A stretch of DNA of 64,000 bases, taken from NCBI GenBank assembly GCA_964596735.1, contig CAZQVF010000004.1, positions 229-64,228 on the forward strand, read 5' to 3'. The translations under genes and the position numbers were made by a program. The stretch is from an uncultured Gammaproteobacteria bacterium (lineage in GTDB: Bacteria; Patescibacteriota; Patescibacteriia; UBA2591; UBA6264). The notes under the pieces are model-generated. The model made no database searches and was not told the DNA's origin. It worked only from the letters and a program-made list of their open reading frames with translations. Shown piece by piece: positions 38,574 to 47,127 of the stretch (its first letter is position 1; each line of letters starts with the position of its first letter).

Positions 38574-38650
38574 TTTAATTTCAAGGTTCCCGCCTAAATT
38601 TCGAAGAAACTTTGGCGGGGTTCTCGCCGAAGGCGAAGTTCTTATTCTTA
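38574..38650 (-). repeat. GC-clamped hairpin repeat, copy A (identical 50-nt core at 38577..38626)
   Basis: The core aatttcaaggttCCCGCCtaaatttcgaagaaactttGGCGGGgttctcg is identical to 42444..42493. A CGCCGAAGGCG mini-hairpin tail follows and ends in the Mur-ligase TAA. Confidence 0.7.
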
Positions 38651-39967
38651 TCCCTCATCTAAAACCTCTCTAACAATTGCTCTATCGTCCCAAGCAATCT
38701 TTTGATTTTTGGGTCCCATAATCCATGGTTCACAACCTTTGCCAGTAATGATTACTACATCCCCTGCTCGAGCCAGATTTATAGCTTTTCTAATGGCTTT
38801 TTTTCTATCAAGAATCTTAATCGCCTTTTTATTTTTTATTCCTGAAATTATTTGATCAATAATTTGCTCAGGATCTTCATTATAAGAATCTTCATTAGTA
38901 ATAATTATTTCGTCTCCATATTTTTCAGCAATCTGTCCCATAATTGGCCTTTTCCATTTATCTCTTCCTCCACCAGCTGAACCTAAAACACAAATTAATC
39001 TGGGCTTCCGCCGAAGGCGGATCCGCTTCTGGCGGAGATTCTTTAAGGTTTGATAAACCTTTTCCAAGGAATCGGGAATATGAGCATAGTCAACAATAAC
39101 AGTAAATGGCTGCTTATCAACCACTTCCATGCGTCCGGGTATTTGCTCAACTTTTGTTAAAGCTTTTTGACAAATATTTAAATCAATGCTCTGAGATAAA
39201 GCCACACAAATAGCGCTTAAAGCATTTATCACATTAAATTTTCCTAGTAGATTGATTTTAAAATTAACATTATTAACTATAAATTCTGAACCATCTGACA
39301 TAGTTCTGATATTTTCCGCGCTGACAACCTTAATATCTTTCAAAATATTTCCTTCGCAAGTATAACCATATTGCTGATCAACTTTAAATTTTAAAAAATA
39401 CTCTTTGTTTTCATCATCTAAATTAACAATGCTAGCCTTATTAATTATTTTCTTATTAATCTTTTTTCTTTTACATTTACTTAAATGTTGAAAAAACTTT
39501 TGTTTAGCCTTCCTATATTTTTCAAAACTACCATGATATTCAATGTGTTCTTTTGATAAATTAGTAAAAACACCAATATCATAGTTAATCCCTAAATGTC
39601 TATATTGCTTAACCCCCTGCGAAGTTGTTTCGATCACAGCATACTGACAACCAGCTTTATACATTTGTTTTAATAATTTTTGTAAAGCAAAACGACCAAG
39701 CATGGTCATTTTATGTTTATTAATTTTTTCCTCTTTACCAATTTTAAAATTAAAAGTAGTGGTTAAACCTACTTTAAATCCAGCTTGTTCTAAAATTTGG
39801 CCGATTAAATTAACCACTGTGGATTTAGCCGAAGTACCGGTCACACCAATAACAATCATTTTATTACTGGGATGGCCATAAATAAAGGCAGCTAAGTGAG
39901 CTAAAGCCCAGTGATAGAATAATAGAACTGGCTGAGGAACTATTTTTTTTAACAATCTTTTTATCAT
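38648..39967 (-). CDS. Mur-ligase-family amide ligase, MurE-like but lacking the N-terminal UDP-binding domain
   Basis: AAFIYGHPSNKMIVIGVTGTSAKST aligns with the MurE region immediately before and including the P-loop, but only about 40 residues precede it. The middle domain has DIGVFTNLSKEHIEYHGSFEKY. The C-terminal domain has VLGSAGGGRD, ITNEDSYNEDPE, DRKKAI, and GDVVIITGKGCE. The start overlaps the upstream gene's stop (ATGA). Confidence 0.7.
   Translation of the reverse strand: MIKRLLKKIVPQPVLLFYHWALAHLAAFIYGHPSNKMIVIGVTGTSAKSTVVNLIGQILEQAGFKVGLTTTFNFKIGKEEKINKHKMTMLGRFALQKLLKQMYKAGCQYAVIETTSQGVKQYRHLGINYDIGVFTNLSKEHIEYHGSFEKYRKAKQKFFQHLSKCKRKKINKKIINKASIVNLDDENKEYFLKFKVDQQYGYTCEGNILKDIKVVSAENIRTMSDGSEFIVNNVNFKINLLGKFNVINALSAICVALSQSIDLNICQKALTKVEQIPGRMEVVDKQPFTVIVDYAHIPDSLEKVYQTLKNLRQKRIRLRRKPRLICVLGSAGGGRDKWKRPIMGQIAEKYGDEIIITNEDSYNEDPEQIIDQIISGIKNKKAIKILDRKKAIRKAINLARAGDVVIITGKGCEPWIMGPKNQKIAWDDRAIVREVLDEG
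39001..39045. repeat. GC-rich double mini-hairpin embedded in-frame in the Mur-ligase coding sequence
   Basis: cttCCGCCgaaGGCGGaTCCGCttctgGCGGAgattc. It shares the CGCCGAAGGCG unit with repeat copy A's tail and encodes the extra basic segment RLRRKPRL. Confidence 0.5.
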
Positions 39968-41523
39968 TTATTTATTTTTTTAATAAGCCTAACTATTCCT
40001 TTATTTGCATCTACCTCTACTAAATCACCGTTCCTCAGAACCCTTGTAGCTGTTTTTGTACCAACAATGCAAGGTATTTTAAGTTCGCGAGAAATTATTG
40101 CTGCATGACAGGCTAAACCACCTTCATCTGTAATAATAGCTGCAGATTTATTTACCAATGGCATAAAATCCGGCCTGGTCATAGCAGTAACCAAAATCTC
40201 TCCCTGACTCATTTTAACATTACTACGAGGGTTAAGTACAACCTTAATTTTTCCACTAACTACACCCCCTGAGGCCGTTAAGCCCTTGATTACCTTGATT
40301 CTCTGATGACTTCTCGGTTTCGCCTGAACTAATGATAATAAAAATGGATTAATATTTTTATTTAGCCACCAGATTCTTCCATTTTTATTTCTAAACTGAA
40401 CAACTAAATCAAATCGTTTCTTAATAGAATTCAGATCTATTCTTTTGTTCTGCAAAAAATCTATGAATTCGCTAGGTAACATATGATATAAAATCTTCCT
40501 AGAAATATTTTTTTCTTTAGCTGCTTTTCGAATAATCACATCTTGCCAATATGTACCAATTAGACCCGCTTTTTTTCTGCGGTCCTGCCACCCTGCCATA
40601 AAAGATATTAATTCTAATATTTTAATTTCTTGCTTGGTAAATATGTTAGCTCTTTTGATTTTTAGCTTTTCTTTCTTAATATTTCTTTTATAATCCTTGA
40701 TCTCCTCTAAGTCTTTTTTTATTTCTAACATTCCTTTAAACTCTTTGGCTGTTTTGATCTCTTTTAAGATATCTTCCTCTGTTAATGCTTTTGCTCCGAG
40801 ATAATTCGTATACAGCCAATAATATTTCTTTAGGTAGCTCCTGGCAGTACTTTCTTTATTCTTTGTAAAGGCTATTTCAAAAAGATTTTTTCTGGCGACA
40901 GAAAGAAAAGAAGACTCTTTAGGAGAAGACAATATGTTTATTTCACTATGAAGCTTTGGATATTTTTTTATCAACTTTTTAGAGATATATTCACTATAAT
41001 TTAAAAAATACTCCGGAATAATACCATAAGCCCACTGGGTTGAATGGGCATTATAAATATTAATATAGTCCAGGGTAATGTCATTTATCCCCCCTTTCTC
41101 TATCTTCTTAACCAATTCATAAAAGCGTCTTTCTTTGTCTTCCCACCGCCTGAACTCTCTATTAATAAACTTTGTGTTCTTAATCAACTCTTCTGATCTC
41201 TTAATAAGCAAAGATTTATTATAAACCCAAACAAGATTAGAGCCTTTAAAAATCGTCAAAATAAAGTCAAAATTTAACTTTATCTTTTTAGCATGTGGAG
41301 AATGTGTTAAAGGATTATCAGCAGAAAAAAACAAATGAATATTGCCCGGGAAATTAAAAACGCCAATTGACTCTAATCTCTGAAGCTTGTTTATAATCCT
41401 TTTTTCTATCTTTTGAGACATAGAAAGATAACGCTTTATCAAAGCTATTTTAATATAAAAATTTATAACGTCGTAATTGGCCTTGATTGAGTAATATAAA
41501 TCTTTCCTTTGGCAAAGGCCCAT
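39964..41523 (-). CDS. PEP-utilising-enzyme family protein, paralog 4: a ~400-aa N-terminal putative substrate domain plus a C-terminal phosphohistidine swivel domain
   Basis: The C-terminus GEILVTAMTRPDFMPLVNKSAAIITDEGGLACHAAIISRELKIPCIVGTKTATRVLRNGDLVEVDANKGIV is PF00391. The first ~20 residues of the tracked ORF overlap the upstream ATP-grasp extension in another frame, so the likely start is ATG 41421 (MSQKIEKR). Confidence 0.6.
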   Translation of the reverse strand: MGLCQRKDLYYSIKANYDVINFYIKIALIKRYLSMSQKIEKRIINKLQRLESIGVFNFPGNIHLFFSADNPLTHSPHAKKIKLNFDFILTIFKGSNLVWVYNKSLLIKRSEELIKNTKFINREFRRWEDKERRFYELVKKIEKGGINDITLDYINIYNAHSTQWAYGIIPEYFLNYSEYISKKLIKKYPKLHSEINILSSPKESSFLSVARKNLFEIAFTKNKESTARSYLKKYYWLYTNYLGAKALTEEDILKEIKTAKEFKGMLEIKKDLEEIKDYKRNIKKEKLKIKRANIFTKQEIKILELISFMAGWQDRRKKAGLIGTYWQDVIIRKAAKEKNISRKILYHMLPSEFIDFLQNKRIDLNSIKKRFDLVVQFRNKNGRIWWLNKNINPFLLSLVQAKPRSHQRIKVIKGLTASGGVVSGKIKVVLNPRSNVKMSQGEILVTAMTRPDFMPLVNKSAAIITDEGGLACHAAIISRELKIPCIVGTKTATRVLRNGDLVEVDANKGIVRLIKKINK

Positions 41524-41642
41524 TCAATATCTTGGGGAGTTTTATAATGTTTCTCAATATTTCTAACTATTTTACTTAATTTAATAATCTCAGGATTTTT
41601 TAATTTTTGTTTAGCTTGTTTTGCTTTAGGAACAGCGATATT
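41463..41642 (-). other. In-frame 59-codon continuation of the PPDK_N ATP-grasp gene beyond its TAA
   Basis: Same frame as 41643..42422. It translates to NIAVPKAKQAKQKLKNPEIIKLSKIVRNIEKHYKTPQDIEWAFAKGKIYITQSRPITTL, the conserved end of the PEP synthase / PPDK nucleotide-binding domain (IEKHYG.P.DIEWA...IVQARP). Confidence 0.7.
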
Positions 41643-42422
41643 TTAATTCTTATTCTTTGCCCATTTAATCATTTTCTCCTGTTCATTAATATTAATATCT
41701 AAAATGGTTAAAGAGTCTTTTTCAACCACATAAGCATCAGGGGTAATCATTCCCCCGACAATGGCTTCTCCTAAACCATAACCGGCTTCAATAATCATTT
41801 GATTTTTATCTTTAGTAATAGGGTGAACAGTAAAACAAATTCCTGAAACTTCTGATTGAATCATTTTTTGCACGGCTACAGCCACAGAAACACTTTTTCT
41901 TCGCATTTTTCTCTCTATCCGATAAAACAAAGCGCGAGGAGTATAAAGAGACGCCCAACATTTTTTAACATTTTTTAAAACCATTTTTTCCGTGGTATTT
42001 AAATAAGTTTCCAATTCCCCTGCCCAAGAATCAATCTTGGAATCTTCTGCTGTGGCTGAACTTCTTACGGCGACATATTTTACCTTTAACTTTTTAAATT
42101 CTTTTAATATTTCTTGTTGCATTGATTTAGGCATTTTTTTATTCATAATCAAATCTCTAAGAATTTCTGAACTTTCTTCCACTGATTCTATATCTTTTAA
42201 ATTGATTTTGTTTAACCTTGCCCTGATTTCTACATTAATATCCGTTGCTTTTAAATATTCTTCAAAAGCCAAAGCGGTAACGACAAAACCTTCTGGCACA
42301 TGAAAACCAGCTTTTGTCATTTCTCCCAGAGAGGCTCCCTTCCCTCCAACAGAATTAACATCCTTTTTTGAAATTTGATTAAAATGTTTTATAAAATCAC
42401 TCATATTGTTAAAATTTAGCAA
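41643..42422 (-). CDS. Stand-alone PEP-synthase / pyruvate-phosphate-dikinase N-terminal ATP-grasp (PPDK_N) domain protein, interrupted by an in-frame TAA
   Basis: DVNSVGGKGASLGEMTKAGFHVPEGFVVT ... VAVRSSATAEDS ... GLGEAIVGGMITPD is PF01326. The tracked start is a TTG at 42422; a good ATG (MSDFIKHFNQ) is at 42404. Confidence 0.75.
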   Translation of the reverse strand: MLNFNNMSDFIKHFNQISKKDVNSVGGKGASLGEMTKAGFHVPEGFVVTALAFEEYLKATDINVEIRARLNKINLKDIESVEESSEILRDLIMNKKMPKSMQQEILKEFKKLKVKYVAVRSSATAEDSKIDSWAGELETYLNTTEKMVLKNVKKCWASLYTPRALFYRIERKMRRKSVSVAVAVQKMIQSEVSGICFTVHPITKDKNQMIIEAGYGLGEAIVGGMITPDAYVVEKDSLTILDININEQEKMIKWAKNKN

Positions 42423-42440
42423 TAAAATATTATTTACATA

Positions 42441-42519
42441 TTAAATTTCAAGGTTCCCGCCTAAATTTCGAAGAAACTTTGGCGGGGTTCTCGACGAACG
42501 AAGTGAGGAGGGATTCTTA
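42441..42519 (-). repeat. GC-clamped hairpin repeat, copy B (identical 50-nt core at 42444..42493)
   Basis: Identical to 38577..38626. Its tail ends in the TAA of paralog 3. Confidence 0.7.
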
Positions 42520-44067
42520 TTTTTTAATAATATTAATTATACCATGTGTGGCATCAACCTCAATAATGCTCCCATCTTTTAAAACTTGAGTGGCGATCTT
42601 AGTGCCAATCACGCAAGGAATGTCTAATTCCCGACTAACAATGGCAGCATGGCAGGTTAAGCCACCAGTATCAGTAACAACAGCGGCGGCTTTTTTCATA
42701 GCAGGCACTAAGGAAGGATTAGTAATTTGAGAAACTAAAATATCACCTTTTTTCATTTTTTGCATCTCCTCTGGAATAGTAATAATCCTGACAGTGCCTC
42801 GAGCTTTACCTGGACAACCACACTCTCCACTAAGTTCACGGGTGTCTTTGAGTTTTGGCAGTGAATTTAAAATCGGCTTCATAATCTTCTGGGCCGCCTG
42901 ACCAGTATAAAGTTTAAAATCTCCGTCTTCAGCTCGATAAATTGAATATCCAAGCATTTCGTTAGCTTGCTTAACAGGAAATTTCCTCTTCTTTAAAATT
43001 TCCACTAAATCGCCATCGTGAATAATGTAAAGCTGCTTTAAAGAAATATTAAATTCTTTAGCTGCTTGTTTAAGCAGTGGTTTAATAAAACAATATGACT
43101 GATACAAGGCATCCATTCTAACCACTTTGGCATGTATTATACCGGTCATCAACTCAAATAACTTTTGCTGATCATCATCTATGTTAAGCTTGTTAATCCA
43201 ATCCTTTTTAACTGATAACAATTCATTCTGTTGTTTTTTCATCTGTCCAGCTTTTTCAGCTAAACCTTTTTTATTTAACATCCGTTTAAACAAATCAACA
43301 AAGTAATCTATCTCCCAAGCTGGACCTATCCAACTATAAGGCAACCAATAATAAATTTTGTAATGATTAACAAGCTCTTGCCAACATTCTTTAAAATCTT
43401 TTCTTAAAATCTCTTTAACTTCTTCTAAACCCTCTTTGGATTTCATGCCCTTTTTCAGCTTTGTATTCTTTTGATACTTAGCAACCAATGAGAGAAAATC
43501 GTGTTCTTCTCTCTGATTAAAACTCCATTCTTTGGGAGTAGTTAGTAATCGAAAAATCTCTTGAGCCCTGGGGTGATTGGCCTTTCTCCTAGAATCAAGA
43601 TATTCAGTTAAATAAGAAGATAATAAAGTATTATTAAGCTCCAAAAGATTAGGCACCATACCTAAACACCATAAATTATAATGTAATCTATGCCACTTGG
43701 CGAAAGTGGTTACTATTTTATTCCATGAACTTGAGGCAAAATTAATTCCCTTAATTCTCTTATTAAAAGAAAAAAGGTCTGTGGCGGCTGCCTCAATTGC
43801 TCTGAGAGCTCGAGCTAATAACTTTGGTTCTTTCTTAATTTGATTAAAATATCTTTGGCTAATCTTATTCCATTCACTTTGTGAAATATAATATCGCTGA
43901 ACACCATTTTTATACTCCCAAACTTGATTTTCACAGGCATAACCAACATTTTTCTTAAGTTCAGTATAAAGACCATAGATATATGGACTATGAAACCAAT
44001 ATAAATCATACCATTCAGCAAAACATATCCAATCATTCTTTATTCCTTTTATTTCTTTTGACGCCAT
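42517..44067 (-). CDS. PEP-utilising-enzyme family protein, paralog 3 (N-terminal domain plus phosphohistidine swivel domain)
   Basis: The C-terminus GECGCPGKARGTVRIITIPEEMQKMKKGDILVSQITNPSLVPAMKKAAAVVTDTGGLTCHAAIVSRELDIPCVIGTK. The N-terminal domain shares W-x-C-x-AE and KxYYWLPYSWIGPA motifs with paralog 2. Confidence 0.65.
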   Translation of the reverse strand: MASKEIKGIKNDWICFAEWYDLYWFHSPYIYGLYTELKKNVGYACENQVWEYKNGVQRYYISQSEWNKISQRYFNQIKKEPKLLARALRAIEAAATDLFSFNKRIKGINFASSSWNKIVTTFAKWHRLHYNLWCLGMVPNLLELNNTLLSSYLTEYLDSRRKANHPRAQEIFRLLTTPKEWSFNQREEHDFLSLVAKYQKNTKLKKGMKSKEGLEEVKEILRKDFKECWQELVNHYKIYYWLPYSWIGPAWEIDYFVDLFKRMLNKKGLAEKAGQMKKQQNELLSVKKDWINKLNIDDDQQKLFELMTGIIHAKVVRMDALYQSYCFIKPLLKQAAKEFNISLKQLYIIHDGDLVEILKKRKFPVKQANEMLGYSIYRAEDGDFKLYTGQAAQKIMKPILNSLPKLKDTRELSGECGCPGKARGTVRIITIPEEMQKMKKGDILVSQITNPSLVPAMKKAAAVVTDTGGLTCHAAIVSRELDIPCVIGTKIATQVLKDGSIIEVDATHGIINIIKK

Positions 44068-44076
44068 AAACCTATT

Positions 44077-45642
44077 CTATTTCTTTTTTAATATCTTAAC
44101 CACCCCCTTAGTCGCATCAACCTCAACTAAATCCCCATCTTTAAAAATTTTAGTAACAATTTTAGTTCCGACGATACAAGGAATGCCTAGTTCCCTGCTA
44201 ACAATAGCGGCATGACAAGACAATCCACCAGCATTAGTAACAATGGCCGCTGCATTTTTCATAGCTGGAACTAGGCTTGGATAAGTTGTTTCAGAAATCA
44301 AAATATCACCTTTTTTCATTTTCACTATATCTTTAGGATACTCAACAATCTTAATCTGCCCCTTGGCTTTACCCGGTGAAGCACAGGTTCCTTTTAGTTC
44401 ATCAACTTGCCTTTGAATAGCTAATTTTTCTTTAGGCAGTTTGTCAAAAAAATCTTGAGCCTTTTTACCAGTTAAAATCGTGGTTTTTTTAGCTGTAGTA
44501 TAAAAAATAGCGCATTTCATCCGAGCTTTAAGAACTTCTATTGTAGGAATCTTGCCATCCTTTAAGGCTTTTATTATTTCTCCATAGGTCATGGCTCTAA
44601 CATTATGGCAAGTTATTTTAAACTTTTTAGCAATTTGCCTAAAAAAGGGTTGATAACAATACATGCCGTGATAAAGAGACCCCTTTCTAAACTCCTTAAC
44701 AAAAACAATTTCTTGACATATCTTAATAAGTTTAAGTTGATAAGAATTAAATCTTAGTTTTTTAAATAAATCTCTTTGTTTTTGTTTTGTCTTTCTTTCT
44801 TTAGCTAAGATCTCTTTTAAAAGCTCTGTTGGCAAGACATTTCCCTTAATTAAATTTTGCCAGCGTTCTAAAAAATATTTAAAAGGATAAGCTGGTCCTT
44901 TATACTCATAAGGCAACCAGGTCCATTCTTTAAAATGAGCTTGCATAATTTCAAACATTTTTAAATCTACCTCCCTGAGCTTTTTGGGTAAAAGGTTTAA
45001 TTTAGTCTTTTTAAAAACCTGTTTAATTTTAGGTTGAGAATATATTTGCTGAGCAACTTTTAAAAATTCTTTTTCTTCTTTGATAACAAAACTTTTTTTA
45101 ATTGGAGTAGAAAGGACACTAAAAACATTAGCTAATTCTAATTTTAATTTTAATTTTCTTTTTTTAATCTGCTTTTCAATCATTTTTGTAACCGACCTAC
45201 TTATTCTTTCTTTGTCTGCATCAACGTGCCAGGAAACAGCTGAGCCAACTCCATGAGATAGTTCTTGCCATTTTAAAACCCGTTGATAAGCATTAAGCAT
45301 TTGTACTGAAGTCATTTTAGAAAAAGGCAAATTAAAAAATTTATTAGATTCTTTAATAAACTTGTTTGAATAAACCTCAGCTTTATCTAACATTTTTAAG
45401 GCCCAATCAGGATTGGAAATCATTTTTTTAGCTAAAAAATCTGCCGCTGCATCAAATTCAGATCTTTTATAATATAAAGCAGAAAAATCTCCTTTAAAAT
45501 AATTAAAACAAACCTTTATTTTTGATCCTAATCCTAGTCTAGGCCAACCTGTAAAGAAAAAACGAAGTGGCAGGCTAATTATAAATATTGTGTTTCTTGT
45601 AATTTCTGCAGAACAAAACCACAAATCTTTATTTTTTTTCAT
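44077..45642 (-). CDS. PEP-utilising-enzyme family protein, paralog 2
   Basis: The C-terminus GTCASPGKAKGQIKIVEYPKDIVKMKKGDILISETTYPSLVPAMKNAAAIVTNAGGLSCHAAIVSRELGIPCIVGTK. Confidence 0.65.
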   Translation of the reverse strand: MKKNKDLWFCSAEITRNTIFIISLPLRFFFTGWPRLGLGSKIKVCFNYFKGDFSALYYKRSEFDAAADFLAKKMISNPDWALKMLDKAEVYSNKFIKESNKFFNLPFSKMTSVQMLNAYQRVLKWQELSHGVGSAVSWHVDADKERISRSVTKMIEKQIKKRKLKLKLELANVFSVLSTPIKKSFVIKEEKEFLKVAQQIYSQPKIKQVFKKTKLNLLPKKLREVDLKMFEIMQAHFKEWTWLPYEYKGPAYPFKYFLERWQNLIKGNVLPTELLKEILAKERKTKQKQRDLFKKLRFNSYQLKLIKICQEIVFVKEFRKGSLYHGMYCYQPFFRQIAKKFKITCHNVRAMTYGEIIKALKDGKIPTIEVLKARMKCAIFYTTAKKTTILTGKKAQDFFDKLPKEKLAIQRQVDELKGTCASPGKAKGQIKIVEYPKDIVKMKKGDILISETTYPSLVPAMKNAAAIVTNAGGLSCHAAIVSRELGIPCIVGTKIVTKIFKDGDLVEVDATKGVVKILKKK

Positions 45643-45651
45643 AAATTTTAA

Positions 45652-47127
45652 CTAATTCTTATTTTTAATAATTCTAACCACTCCTTTATTTGCGTCTACT
45701 TTGACCAAATCCCCATCTTTCAATGCCCTAGTGGCAATTTTAGTGCCCACAACGCAAGGAATTTTTAATTCACGAGAGATAATGGCCGCATGAGAAAGTA
45801 ATCCGCCCTCATCAGTAATTATAGCTGATGCCTTTTCCATAGCCGGGACAAATTTAGGATTGGTCTTTGGGCTGACTAATATTTCTCCTCTTTTCATTTT
45901 AGCCACATCACAGTAGCTTTCTAAAACTCTGACCCTTGCTTTAACTATGCCTGAAGAAGCAGCCACTCCTTTTAGTTGATCAACTTGTTTTATCTGAGAC
46001 TCTGTCTTTCTTTTTTCTGCTTCTTCCCATTTTTCTAACTCTTTTCCCGAGTAAATTTTTATTTCTGTTCCCTGCCAAAGAATTCCATATTTTTTTACTC
46101 TTTGCTTTAATTTAACTTTTGTTCGTGAAGAGATTACGCCCTTTTTAAAAAATTCATCAATTTCTTCAAAGGCCATCTCTGCCAGCATCTTGTGACTTAT
46201 TTTCATTCTTTTAGCAAGCTCTGAATGAAGCCCCTTAAGATAATGGCTAATTAAACAACCAGCTTCATCTAAATAATTAAGGCAATGACCCCACTGTTTC
46301 AAGGTTTTTATAATAAGTTGGGCCTTTTTAGACAAATTAAGCTCCTGAATAATTTTTTGCGTCAATTCTTTATTCTTTTCTTGAATTTTGATTTTTCTAA
46401 TTTCCTCTTTTAACTCCTTAGGCAAAATCCTCTTGATTCTTTTCTCTATCTCTTTCTCTGTATAAGGTTGATAATAGTAAAAATAGTAGTTGAGAAACCC
46501 GTATTTTTTAATATGGTCCTTGATAAATCTTTGAATTCTTTTATTTTTAAAAGAAAGTTTTTTCTCTTTTACTAACTTAGCTAGTTTTAAGAGCTGAAGC
46601 CTTTCTTGTCTAATCAAAGTCGGCCTATCAAGGCCAGTTAAAATTCCAATAATCTCATTAAATCTTTTTTCGTTTTTTAGTTTTTTATTAATTTCGGCAA
46701 TCAAAACATCGGGCAAATATCGATCTATTATATAATATGTGTAATCAGGAACAAGCCATTTCTTTTTCAAATCAATAAGCTTTCTGTAGATCTTTTCAAT
46801 TCCTTGAAGCTCCCATCTCGAAAAATCAACGTCTTTATATCTCTCACAAAATTGGACAATTTCTTTATTCCTTTTTTCAAATTCTTTTCCTAATTTTAAA
46901 AGATAACCAGGACTTTTATTTTCTTTACTTTTGATTAGTTTTAAATAATCATCCCATTCTTCTTTGTTAAAATAAGTCGCGCCAAGAACCCGACGATAAT
47001 AATGAATAGTAAAATTAGCTTTTAAAAACTTTTTTAAAAGCCCTTCCTTATAGGCATAAGGAAAAATAGATATTAAAAGTAAAGGAACCCGGCCAGTTTT
47101 AGTTACTTGAACCCAATTAACAGGCAT
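45652..47127 (-). CDS. PEP-utilising-enzyme family protein, paralog 1
   Basis: The C-terminus GVAASSGIVKARVRVLESYCDVAKMKRGEILVSPKTNPKFVPAMEKASAIITDEGGLLSHAAIISRELKIPCVVGTK. Confidence 0.65.
   Translation of the reverse strand: MPVNWVQVTKTGRVPLLLISIFPYAYKEGLLKKFLKANFTIHYYRRVLGATYFNKEEWDDYLKLIKSKENKSPGYLLKLGKEFEKRNKEIVQFCERYKDVDFSRWELQGIEKIYRKLIDLKKKWLVPDYTYYIIDRYLPDVLIAEINKKLKNEKRFNEIIGILTGLDRPTLIRQERLQLLKLAKLVKEKKLSFKNKRIQRFIKDHIKKYGFLNYYFYYYQPYTEKEIEKRIKRILPKELKEEIRKIKIQEKNKELTQKIIQELNLSKKAQLIIKTLKQWGHCLNYLDEAGCLISHYLKGLHSELAKRMKISHKMLAEMAFEEIDEFFKKGVISSRTKVKLKQRVKKYGILWQGTEIKIYSGKELEKWEEAEKRKTESQIKQVDQLKGVAASSGIVKARVRVLESYCDVAKMKRGEILVSPKTNPKFVPAMEKASAIITDEGGLLSHAAIISRELKIPCVVGTKIATRALKDGDLVKVDANKGVVRIIKNKN

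Follow-up and report, generated by a model that had tools for sequence, protein, structure and literature searches.

A candidate multi-module RPH-type dikinase array with one stand-alone, interrupted ATP-grasp gene in a patescibacterial genome

Small-molecule dikinases of the rifampin phosphotransferase (RPH) superfamily combine three parts in one polypeptide (Stogios et al. 2016): a PPDK_N ATP-grasp domain, a large helical substrate domain, and a swivel domain whose His carries the phosphate. RPH from Listeria monocytogenes (PDB 5FBS, 5FBT, 5FBU, and 5HV1), the PRK06241 group, and PigC/RedH all have this composition. In the two-component AMP-forming dikinases, which include phenylphosphate synthase (PpsAB), CreHI, and HpeHI, an ATP-grasp protein and a protein made of a rifampin (RIF)-binding-like domain and the swivel are encoded separately, and both are required (PMC12167813). 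AcvAB is another heterodimeric example (PMC12624787). The swivel His of HpeHI cannot be dispensed with, and HpeH by itself moves phosphate from 4-phosphoacetophenone to acetovanillone (PMC12167813). The division of labor between an ATP-grasp protein and a substrate-swivel protein is already described and biochemically proven. Here, we analyze a 64-kb window of contig CAZQVF010000004.1 (all positions are given in this window) in which four proteins, each joining an RPH-like substrate domain to a swivel, are encoded between 39964 and 47127 together with a single stand-alone ATP-grasp gene that is interrupted by an in-frame stop codon. We lean toward reading this locus as a Patescibacteria-type, multi-module RPH-type small-molecule dikinase.

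Every gene in this interval lies on the minus strand. As an earlier note on the sequence had proposed, four successive open reading frames (ORFs) share one architecture, a C-terminal phosphoenolpyruvate (PEP)-utilizers swivel domain (PF00391; E 1e-24 to 1e-25) preceded by about 400 residues over which Pfam finds no match. These are paralog 1 (45652-47127; 491 aa), paralog 2 (44077-45642; 521 aa), paralog 3 (42517-44067; 516 aa), and paralog 4 (39964-41421; 485 aa). The motif GGLxxHAAIxSRELxIPC, with the phosphate-carrying His, was located in all four, in line with the same note; the Pfam-delimited swivels lie at 45682-45894 (His446, codon 45790-45792), 44104-44316 (His477, codon 44212-44214), 42541-42753 (His473, codon 42649-42651), and 39997-40209 (His439, codon 40105-40107) in paralogs 1 to 4, respectively. 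The ORFs of paralogs 1, 2, and 3 are spaced by 9 nt with clean boundaries, and all four ORFs are full length with the catalytic His intact. The first three sets of gene coordinates had been given exactly; the fourth gene had been started at 41523, and its start is most likely the ATG at 41421, where the gene calls of public assemblies place it. A start at 41523 entails an out-of-frame overlap with the C terminus of the ATP-grasp gene. The extension upstream of paralog 4 ("MGLCQRK...", 41422-41523) resembles that of a relative ("MGFCQRE...", P0011; L014 5557-5661; L and P numbers label the loci and proteins of relatives), because the conserved DIEWAF...QSRPITTL coding sequence is being read in another frame.

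The N-domain and swivel together were proposed to correspond to the RIF-binding and His domains of RPH (RD and HD), and this is confirmed: the N-domains are a helical, RIF-binding-domain-like substrate domain. The homology is seen solely by profile-profile and structure comparison, because sequence searches against solved structures match the swivel alone, as was the case for a single-sequence phmmer search; the N-domain by itself matched nothing among PDB sequences by HMMER (best E 0.96). Alignments to full-length RPH-like families of NCBIfam (RPH, PigC, and PRK06241) reach 150 to 260 residues upstream of the swivel, with residues 279-518 of paralog 2 aligned to RPH 627-864, and no paralog attains a curated NCBIfam cutoff. 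An alignment of 105 sequences was built, and paralog 3 was modeled with AlphaFold2 (predicted local distance difference test [pLDDT] score of 95; predicted template modeling [pTM] score of 0.92). In a Foldseek search of the PDB, this predicted structure matched Listeria RPH first (E 3.5e-14 to 7e-12; 470-560 aligned columns; template modeling score [TM] of 0.51-0.58), and all matches other than RPH were limited to the swivel, with TM below 0.2. RPH is the sole solved structure matching the N-domains, at 13-19% identity in the structural alignments. Profile-profile comparison with the L. monocytogenes protein (RPH-Lm), for which the sequence came from an annotated Listeria record, gave 99.5% probability and an E value of 3.5e-22 over 329 columns, pairing family positions 180-516 with RPH 517-866; the first ~180 residues of the N-domain have no sequence alignment to RPH.

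Conservation within the N-domains is uneven. Two motifs that had been described as shared among the paralogs, K-x-Y/W-W-L-P-Y..G-P-A and W-x-C-x-A-E, match exactly in paralogs 2 and 3 alone and are degenerate in paralogs 1 and 4, and scores against the N-domain hidden Markov model (HMM) include E 1.3e-128 for paralog 2 and E 2.6e-42 for paralog 4. The best-conserved helix of the N-domain, K314-x-x-R317-K318-D, is 87-88% conserved. In RPH, mutagenesis showed that an Arg666-Glu667 pair is essential for the second phosphotransfer, and Lys670 was implicated by structure (PMC4844700). The program hhalign sets the family helix on RPH R666-E667-x-x-K670, with the basic residues kept; because the register differs and the family lacks an aligned Glu, catalytic equivalence of the two helices is only suggestive. 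Paralogs 2 and 3 carry the full set of conserved residues, and paralog 4 has Q/R/K.

The two halves of the proteins differ in how far they have diverged: pairwise identity among the paralogs is 48-63% for the swivels and 17-23% for the N-domains. From sequence, this is the pattern expected if the swivels met a common docking partner and the N-domains offered differing acceptor sites. At the DNA level, the swivel-coding segments (39977-40215, 42521-42759, 44084-44322, and 45662-45900) are 62-74% identical over 239 nt, and there is no DNA similarity among the four genes outside these segments. This likeness reflects strong constraint, not recent gene conversion.

The candidate partner is the stand-alone ATP-grasp gene (41463-42422; 320 codons, with an ATG at 42404), which lies between paralogs 3 and 4. 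Its product matches PF01326 PPDK_N (E 2e-76; profile positions 2-246 of 328), and its best NCBIfam matches are PEP synthase models. Intact grasp orthologs of 321-337 aa are found in L001 (12491-13462), L004, and L014 (4652-5617). An HMM scan in six frames detected no further grasp or swivel in the 64-kb window and no grasp remnant upstream of paralogs 1 to 3. The earlier note's single, separate ATP-grasp is, then, the only one in the window; what that note overlooked is an in-frame TAA at 41643-41645, which falls in a variable loop of the domain.

Evidence that such modules belong with an ATP-grasp comes from relatives. A profile of the four N-domains was compared with 1.84 billion cluster representatives (clusters counted at 50% identity) and matched 3,920 proteins at E<=1e-3, 2,439 at E<=1e-10, and 255 at E<=1e-30; the family has no Pfam or NCBIfam model, and the searchable literature does not mention it. 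Among the best 150 of the 3,920 matches, most are 480-530 aa with the architecture of the window paralogs, and about 26 exceed 800 aa, the majority of these matching the profile in two to four stretches. Named records come from Candidatus Kerfeldbacteria, Candidatus Magasanikbacteria, and "Patescibacteria group bacterium"; lineage assignment of the related loci rests on few such records, the labeled ones being mostly Patescibacteria. A 3.7-kb contig in an "uncultured Gammaproteobacteria" bin (L012; CAZOCX010000084.1) carries three tandem modules and is probably a binning error and no real occurrence outside Patescibacteria.

Fourteen further independent loci were scanned with custom N-domain, swivel, and grasp HMMs. 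The narrow paralog-3 alignment yielded three genome loci and six metagenome loci, so the survey is biased to arrays holding a paralog-3 ortholog, and this ortholog group is present in most related arrays. The survey recovered the arrangement that the earlier note had suggested looking for: modules are in tandem in all 14 loci, with 2-9 swivel domains and at most one grasp within about 10 kb in each. L001, L004, L014, L017, and L021 have a grasp within reach, which in L001, L004, L014, and L021 is a separate neighboring gene, as in the window; counting the window, a grasp adjoins or is fused to modules in 6 of 15 loci.

Fused forms also occur. P0132 consists of grasp, N-domain, and swivel, which is the RPH architecture, and P0140 of grasp plus two modules. 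P0018 consists of three modules, grasp, and one further module, exactly the gene order of the window, in an uninterrupted ORF of 2309 codons (L017 2012-8941; NCBI assembly GCA_053531335.1). P0018 is strong "Rosetta-stone" evidence for a joint function of several modules with one grasp. Of the four paralogs, paralog 2 is closest to the grasp-fused forms, with P0132 and module 4 of P0018 as its best BLASTP partners; an orthology between the RD+HD part of the fused forms and paralog 4, which directly follows the grasp gene, is not supported.

Other enzymes are interleaved in some of these arrays (L003, L004, L013, and L014): His_Phos_1 phosphatases, HAD hydrolases, APH-family kinases (including one fusion with an alpha/beta hydrolase), an acylphosphatase, and a metallo-beta-lactamase-fold protein. 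The same arrays also encode several proteins of 250-370 aa without a Pfam match. The array-embedded phospho-enzymes hint at small-molecule phospho-metabolism rather than at protein substrates.

Established RPH and HpeHI chemistry, combined with the anatomy of the locus, suggests how a multi-module dikinase would most likely operate. The lone ATP-grasp protein would use bound ATP to charge the swivel His, releasing AMP and inorganic phosphate as in RPH, PEP synthase, and HpeHI. The swivel is carried by four separate proteins, each with a highly diverged RPH-like substrate-binding domain of its own, and the grasp would load each of them in trans. A loaded swivel would then swing back to its own N-domain and hand the phosphate to a bound small molecule. 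In this scheme, the conserved swivels would all fit one docking partner, and acceptor specificity would vary with the divergent N-domains. We infer trans loading, dikinase stoichiometry, and small-molecule acceptors that differ between paralogs from these two sources. The earlier note had proposed four different acceptors for the four proteins; that count is a conjecture.

Several observations weigh against this mechanism, and the stop codon in the grasp gene is foremost. Four independent ENA assemblies (L006-L009) contain the 7.2-kb cluster together with this stop, three of them base-for-base identical and one with a single 1-nt gap, and TAA, TAG, and TGA each terminate conserved genes in the window. 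The four assemblies rule out random sequencing error and mis-assembly as the source of the grasp stop, and the ordinary use of all three stop codons rules out recoding by stop-codon reassignment. The stop is real in this population. The open part of the frame is 259 aa, or 253 aa counted from the ATG at 42404, and the truncated protein is without profile positions ~247-328, including the invariant D-I-E-W and Q-x-R-P. The Mg-ATP site of ATP-grasp enzymes is formed in part by these motifs. Because the lost C-terminal quarter holds them, the 253-aa protein alone probably has no activity, and the shared phosphoryl donor may be inactive in this strain. Read-through, a second grasp outside the window, and very recent disabling of the system are the three possibilities for the donor of this strain.

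The remaining points concern the modules and their surroundings. In paralog 1, Leu replaces both basic residues of the conserved helix (K314 and R317), and W241, G248, and P249 are absent as well, so that the residues aligned to the RPH phosphotransfer helix are missing from one of the four supposed phosphotransferases; this paralog has a 68%-identical ortholog elsewhere (P0020) and is therefore a maintained divergent subtype. No grasp lies within 15-21 kb in three arrays of 8-9 modules each (L003, L013, and L023); the remaining grasp-less loci are short contigs or are cut by contig ends. The neighbors in the window are housekeeping genes (rpoB, a Mur ligase, ScpA/B, a tRNA-editing protein, and AlaRS) and offer no clue to a substrate. 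Finally, we know of no system in which one grasp loads several partners in trans.

The strongest competitor to the dikinase reading, one that we regard as unlikely, is that the system was recently disabled, with the grasp a fresh pseudogene and the four RD+HD genes intact leftovers without a donor, as part of birth-and-death turnover. In its favor, the TAA is an ordinary stop here and is shared by four assemblies, and no in-frame ATG, GTG, or TTG follows the TAA as a restart codon. Related arrays also contain broken modules, split into two ORFs or fragmentary (L005 8394-9650, L011, L003 11527-12591, and L023), which suggests birth-and-death turnover in these arrays. However, the four RD+HD ORFs have not decayed, and the 59 codons past the TAA retain all residues invariant among intact relatives, PpsB, and RPH, D-I-E-W and Q-x-R-P included, so that the lesion must be either very recent or tolerated. 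A second grasp of this strain may also lie outside the 64-kb window.

A more improbable explanation is that the RD+HD proteins are grasp-independent phosphotransferases, which either use the swivel His to shuttle phosphate between phosphorylated and unphosphorylated small molecules or receive it from a donor other than the adjacent grasp. The activity of HpeH alone (PMC12167813) is a precedent, and both the truncation of the window grasp and the L003, L013, and L023 arrays would be accommodated. Against this stand the 6 of 15 loci where a grasp adjoins or is fused to the modules, the P0018, P0132, and P0140 fusions, which argue for obligate coupling, and the fact that PF02896 is reported on no paralog.

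We give slightly less weight still to acceptors other than small molecules, such as proteins, cell-wall precursors, or glycans, or to a regulatory role, possibly linked to the Mur ligase. The stop codon of paralog 4 overlaps the ATG of the Mur-ligase gene by 4 nt (ATGA; 39964-39967), which suggests translational coupling; the 439-aa product has the Mur_ligase_M and Mur_ligase_C domains and is without an N-terminal domain. In addition, a 58-nt hairpin repeat lies between paralog 3 and the ATP-grasp gene (42441-42498, minus strand) and again after the Mur-ligase gene (38574-38631), the copies being 97% identical with an exact 31-nt match at both sites (0 expected by chance), and this suggests a unit of grasp, paralog 4, and Mur ligase. 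The repeat forms the stable hairpin CCCGCC-N19-GGCGGG (RNA minimum free energy of -21.7 kcal/mol; z -3.0). Because no T-tract is present, the hairpin does not qualify as a classical intrinsic terminator; it may serve in termination or processing and separate paralogs 1 to 3 from that unit. Yet the linkage of paralog 4 to a Mur ligase was not seen at the other loci and lineages surveyed, the array neighbors elsewhere are small-molecule kinases and phosphatases, and the characterized relatives RPH, PpsAB, HpeHI, CreHI, and PigC all act on small molecules.

Lastly, although full-length fused relatives such as P0132 exist, an assembly or frameshift artifact of ordinary RPH-like genes, which the earlier note had named as a danger to its proposal, is effectively refuted by the recurrence of the cluster in four assemblies, by the clean boundaries with 9-nt spacers and no grasp remnant upstream of paralogs 1 to 3, and by the same grasp-less module arrangement at 14 other loci.

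If the locus is a multi-module dikinase, a broader proposal can be made tentatively, and we hold it with more doubt than confidence: Patescibacteria as a lineage may possess a "one charger, many carriers" hub, in which a single grasp would serve 2-9 rapidly diversifying modules, sometimes within a polyprotein of >2,300 aa, and the modules would phosphorylate host-derived or environmental small molecules to capture scavenged metabolites or neutralize toxic ones. The underlying chemistry is probably conventional. Paralog expansions are few in the very small genomes of Patescibacteria, and here a large unannotated enzyme family is expanded in minimal genomes, with arrays that occupy 7-15 kb for tandem copies of one enzyme module. 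If one grasp does serve many modules, the swivel mechanism, a feature of 1:1 enzymes, would also underlie a hub architecture, and the set of metabolites or xenobiotics phosphorylated might be central to an episymbiotic lifestyle. A lineage-wide hub would amount to a major unrecognized capability to which roughly 7-15 kb of very small genomes is given. For annotation, these genes should not be named "phosphoenolpyruvate synthase," nor should they be counted as rifampin resistance.

How, then, does the locus compare with known systems? PEP synthase, PPDK, and enzyme I of the phosphotransferase system have homologous ATP-grasp and swivel domains. Nevertheless, the PEP/pyruvate-binding TIM-barrel (PF02896) gave no Pfam hit in the five window proteins, all NCBIfam scores of these proteins on PEP synthase and PPDK models are far below cutoff, and structures of PEP synthase, PPDK, and enzyme I match the swivel only (TM 0.14-0.19). 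A function as PEP synthase, PPDK, or enzyme I is ruled out, as the PEP-binding domain is not present. By PADLOC, none of the genes matches a defense system.

RPH is closer. The window has its PPDK_N grasp, separate and interrupted by a TAA, its RIF-binding-like domain, and its swivel with a GGxxxHAAI-type His. Grasp and RD+HD are separate genes here and a single polypeptide in the RPH superfamily, an equivalent of RPH E667 is not conserved in the window family, and nothing suggests rifampin as a substrate of the window proteins. A resistome survey merely counts "rph" hits in genomes of the candidate phyla radiation (CPR) (PMC8651080), and in the full-text literature we found no paper tying PEP-utilizer domains or PEP-synthase paralogs to Patescibacteria or CPR.

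The two-component dikinases show the same split between grasp and RD+HD and are the direct mechanistic precedent, so the earlier note's view that the organization is not a described one needs narrowing. They are 1:1 gene pairs, whereas the window has one grasp to four modules and arrays elsewhere have up to nine modules; no description of a one-grasp-to-many-modules arrangement was found in the literature, and only the 1:4 stoichiometry and the patescibacterial arrays appear undescribed. The two-component enzymes are encoded in aromatic-catabolism operons (for example, Azoarcus ppsA-ppsB-ppsC-ppcBDA), and the window proteins in housekeeping surroundings of a reduced genome. The sequences differ as well: Azoarcus PpsA belongs to NCBIfam PRK08296, with 1300 bits on PRK08296.1-4, and the window paralogs reach 70-117 bits on these models, over the swivel only, against cutoffs of 578-730. 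By hhalign, the N-domain family aligns to genuine PpsA over 111 columns, all in the swivel, versus 329 columns for RPH. We propose that the window proteins would work like two-component dikinases but lie outside the PpsA/HpeH sequence family and nearer to the RPH-like fused enzymes. Because the N-domains are nearer to RPH-like enzymes and fused patescibacterial forms exist, the comparison suggests that the split between ATP-grasp and RD+HD arose here independently of PpsA/HpeH.

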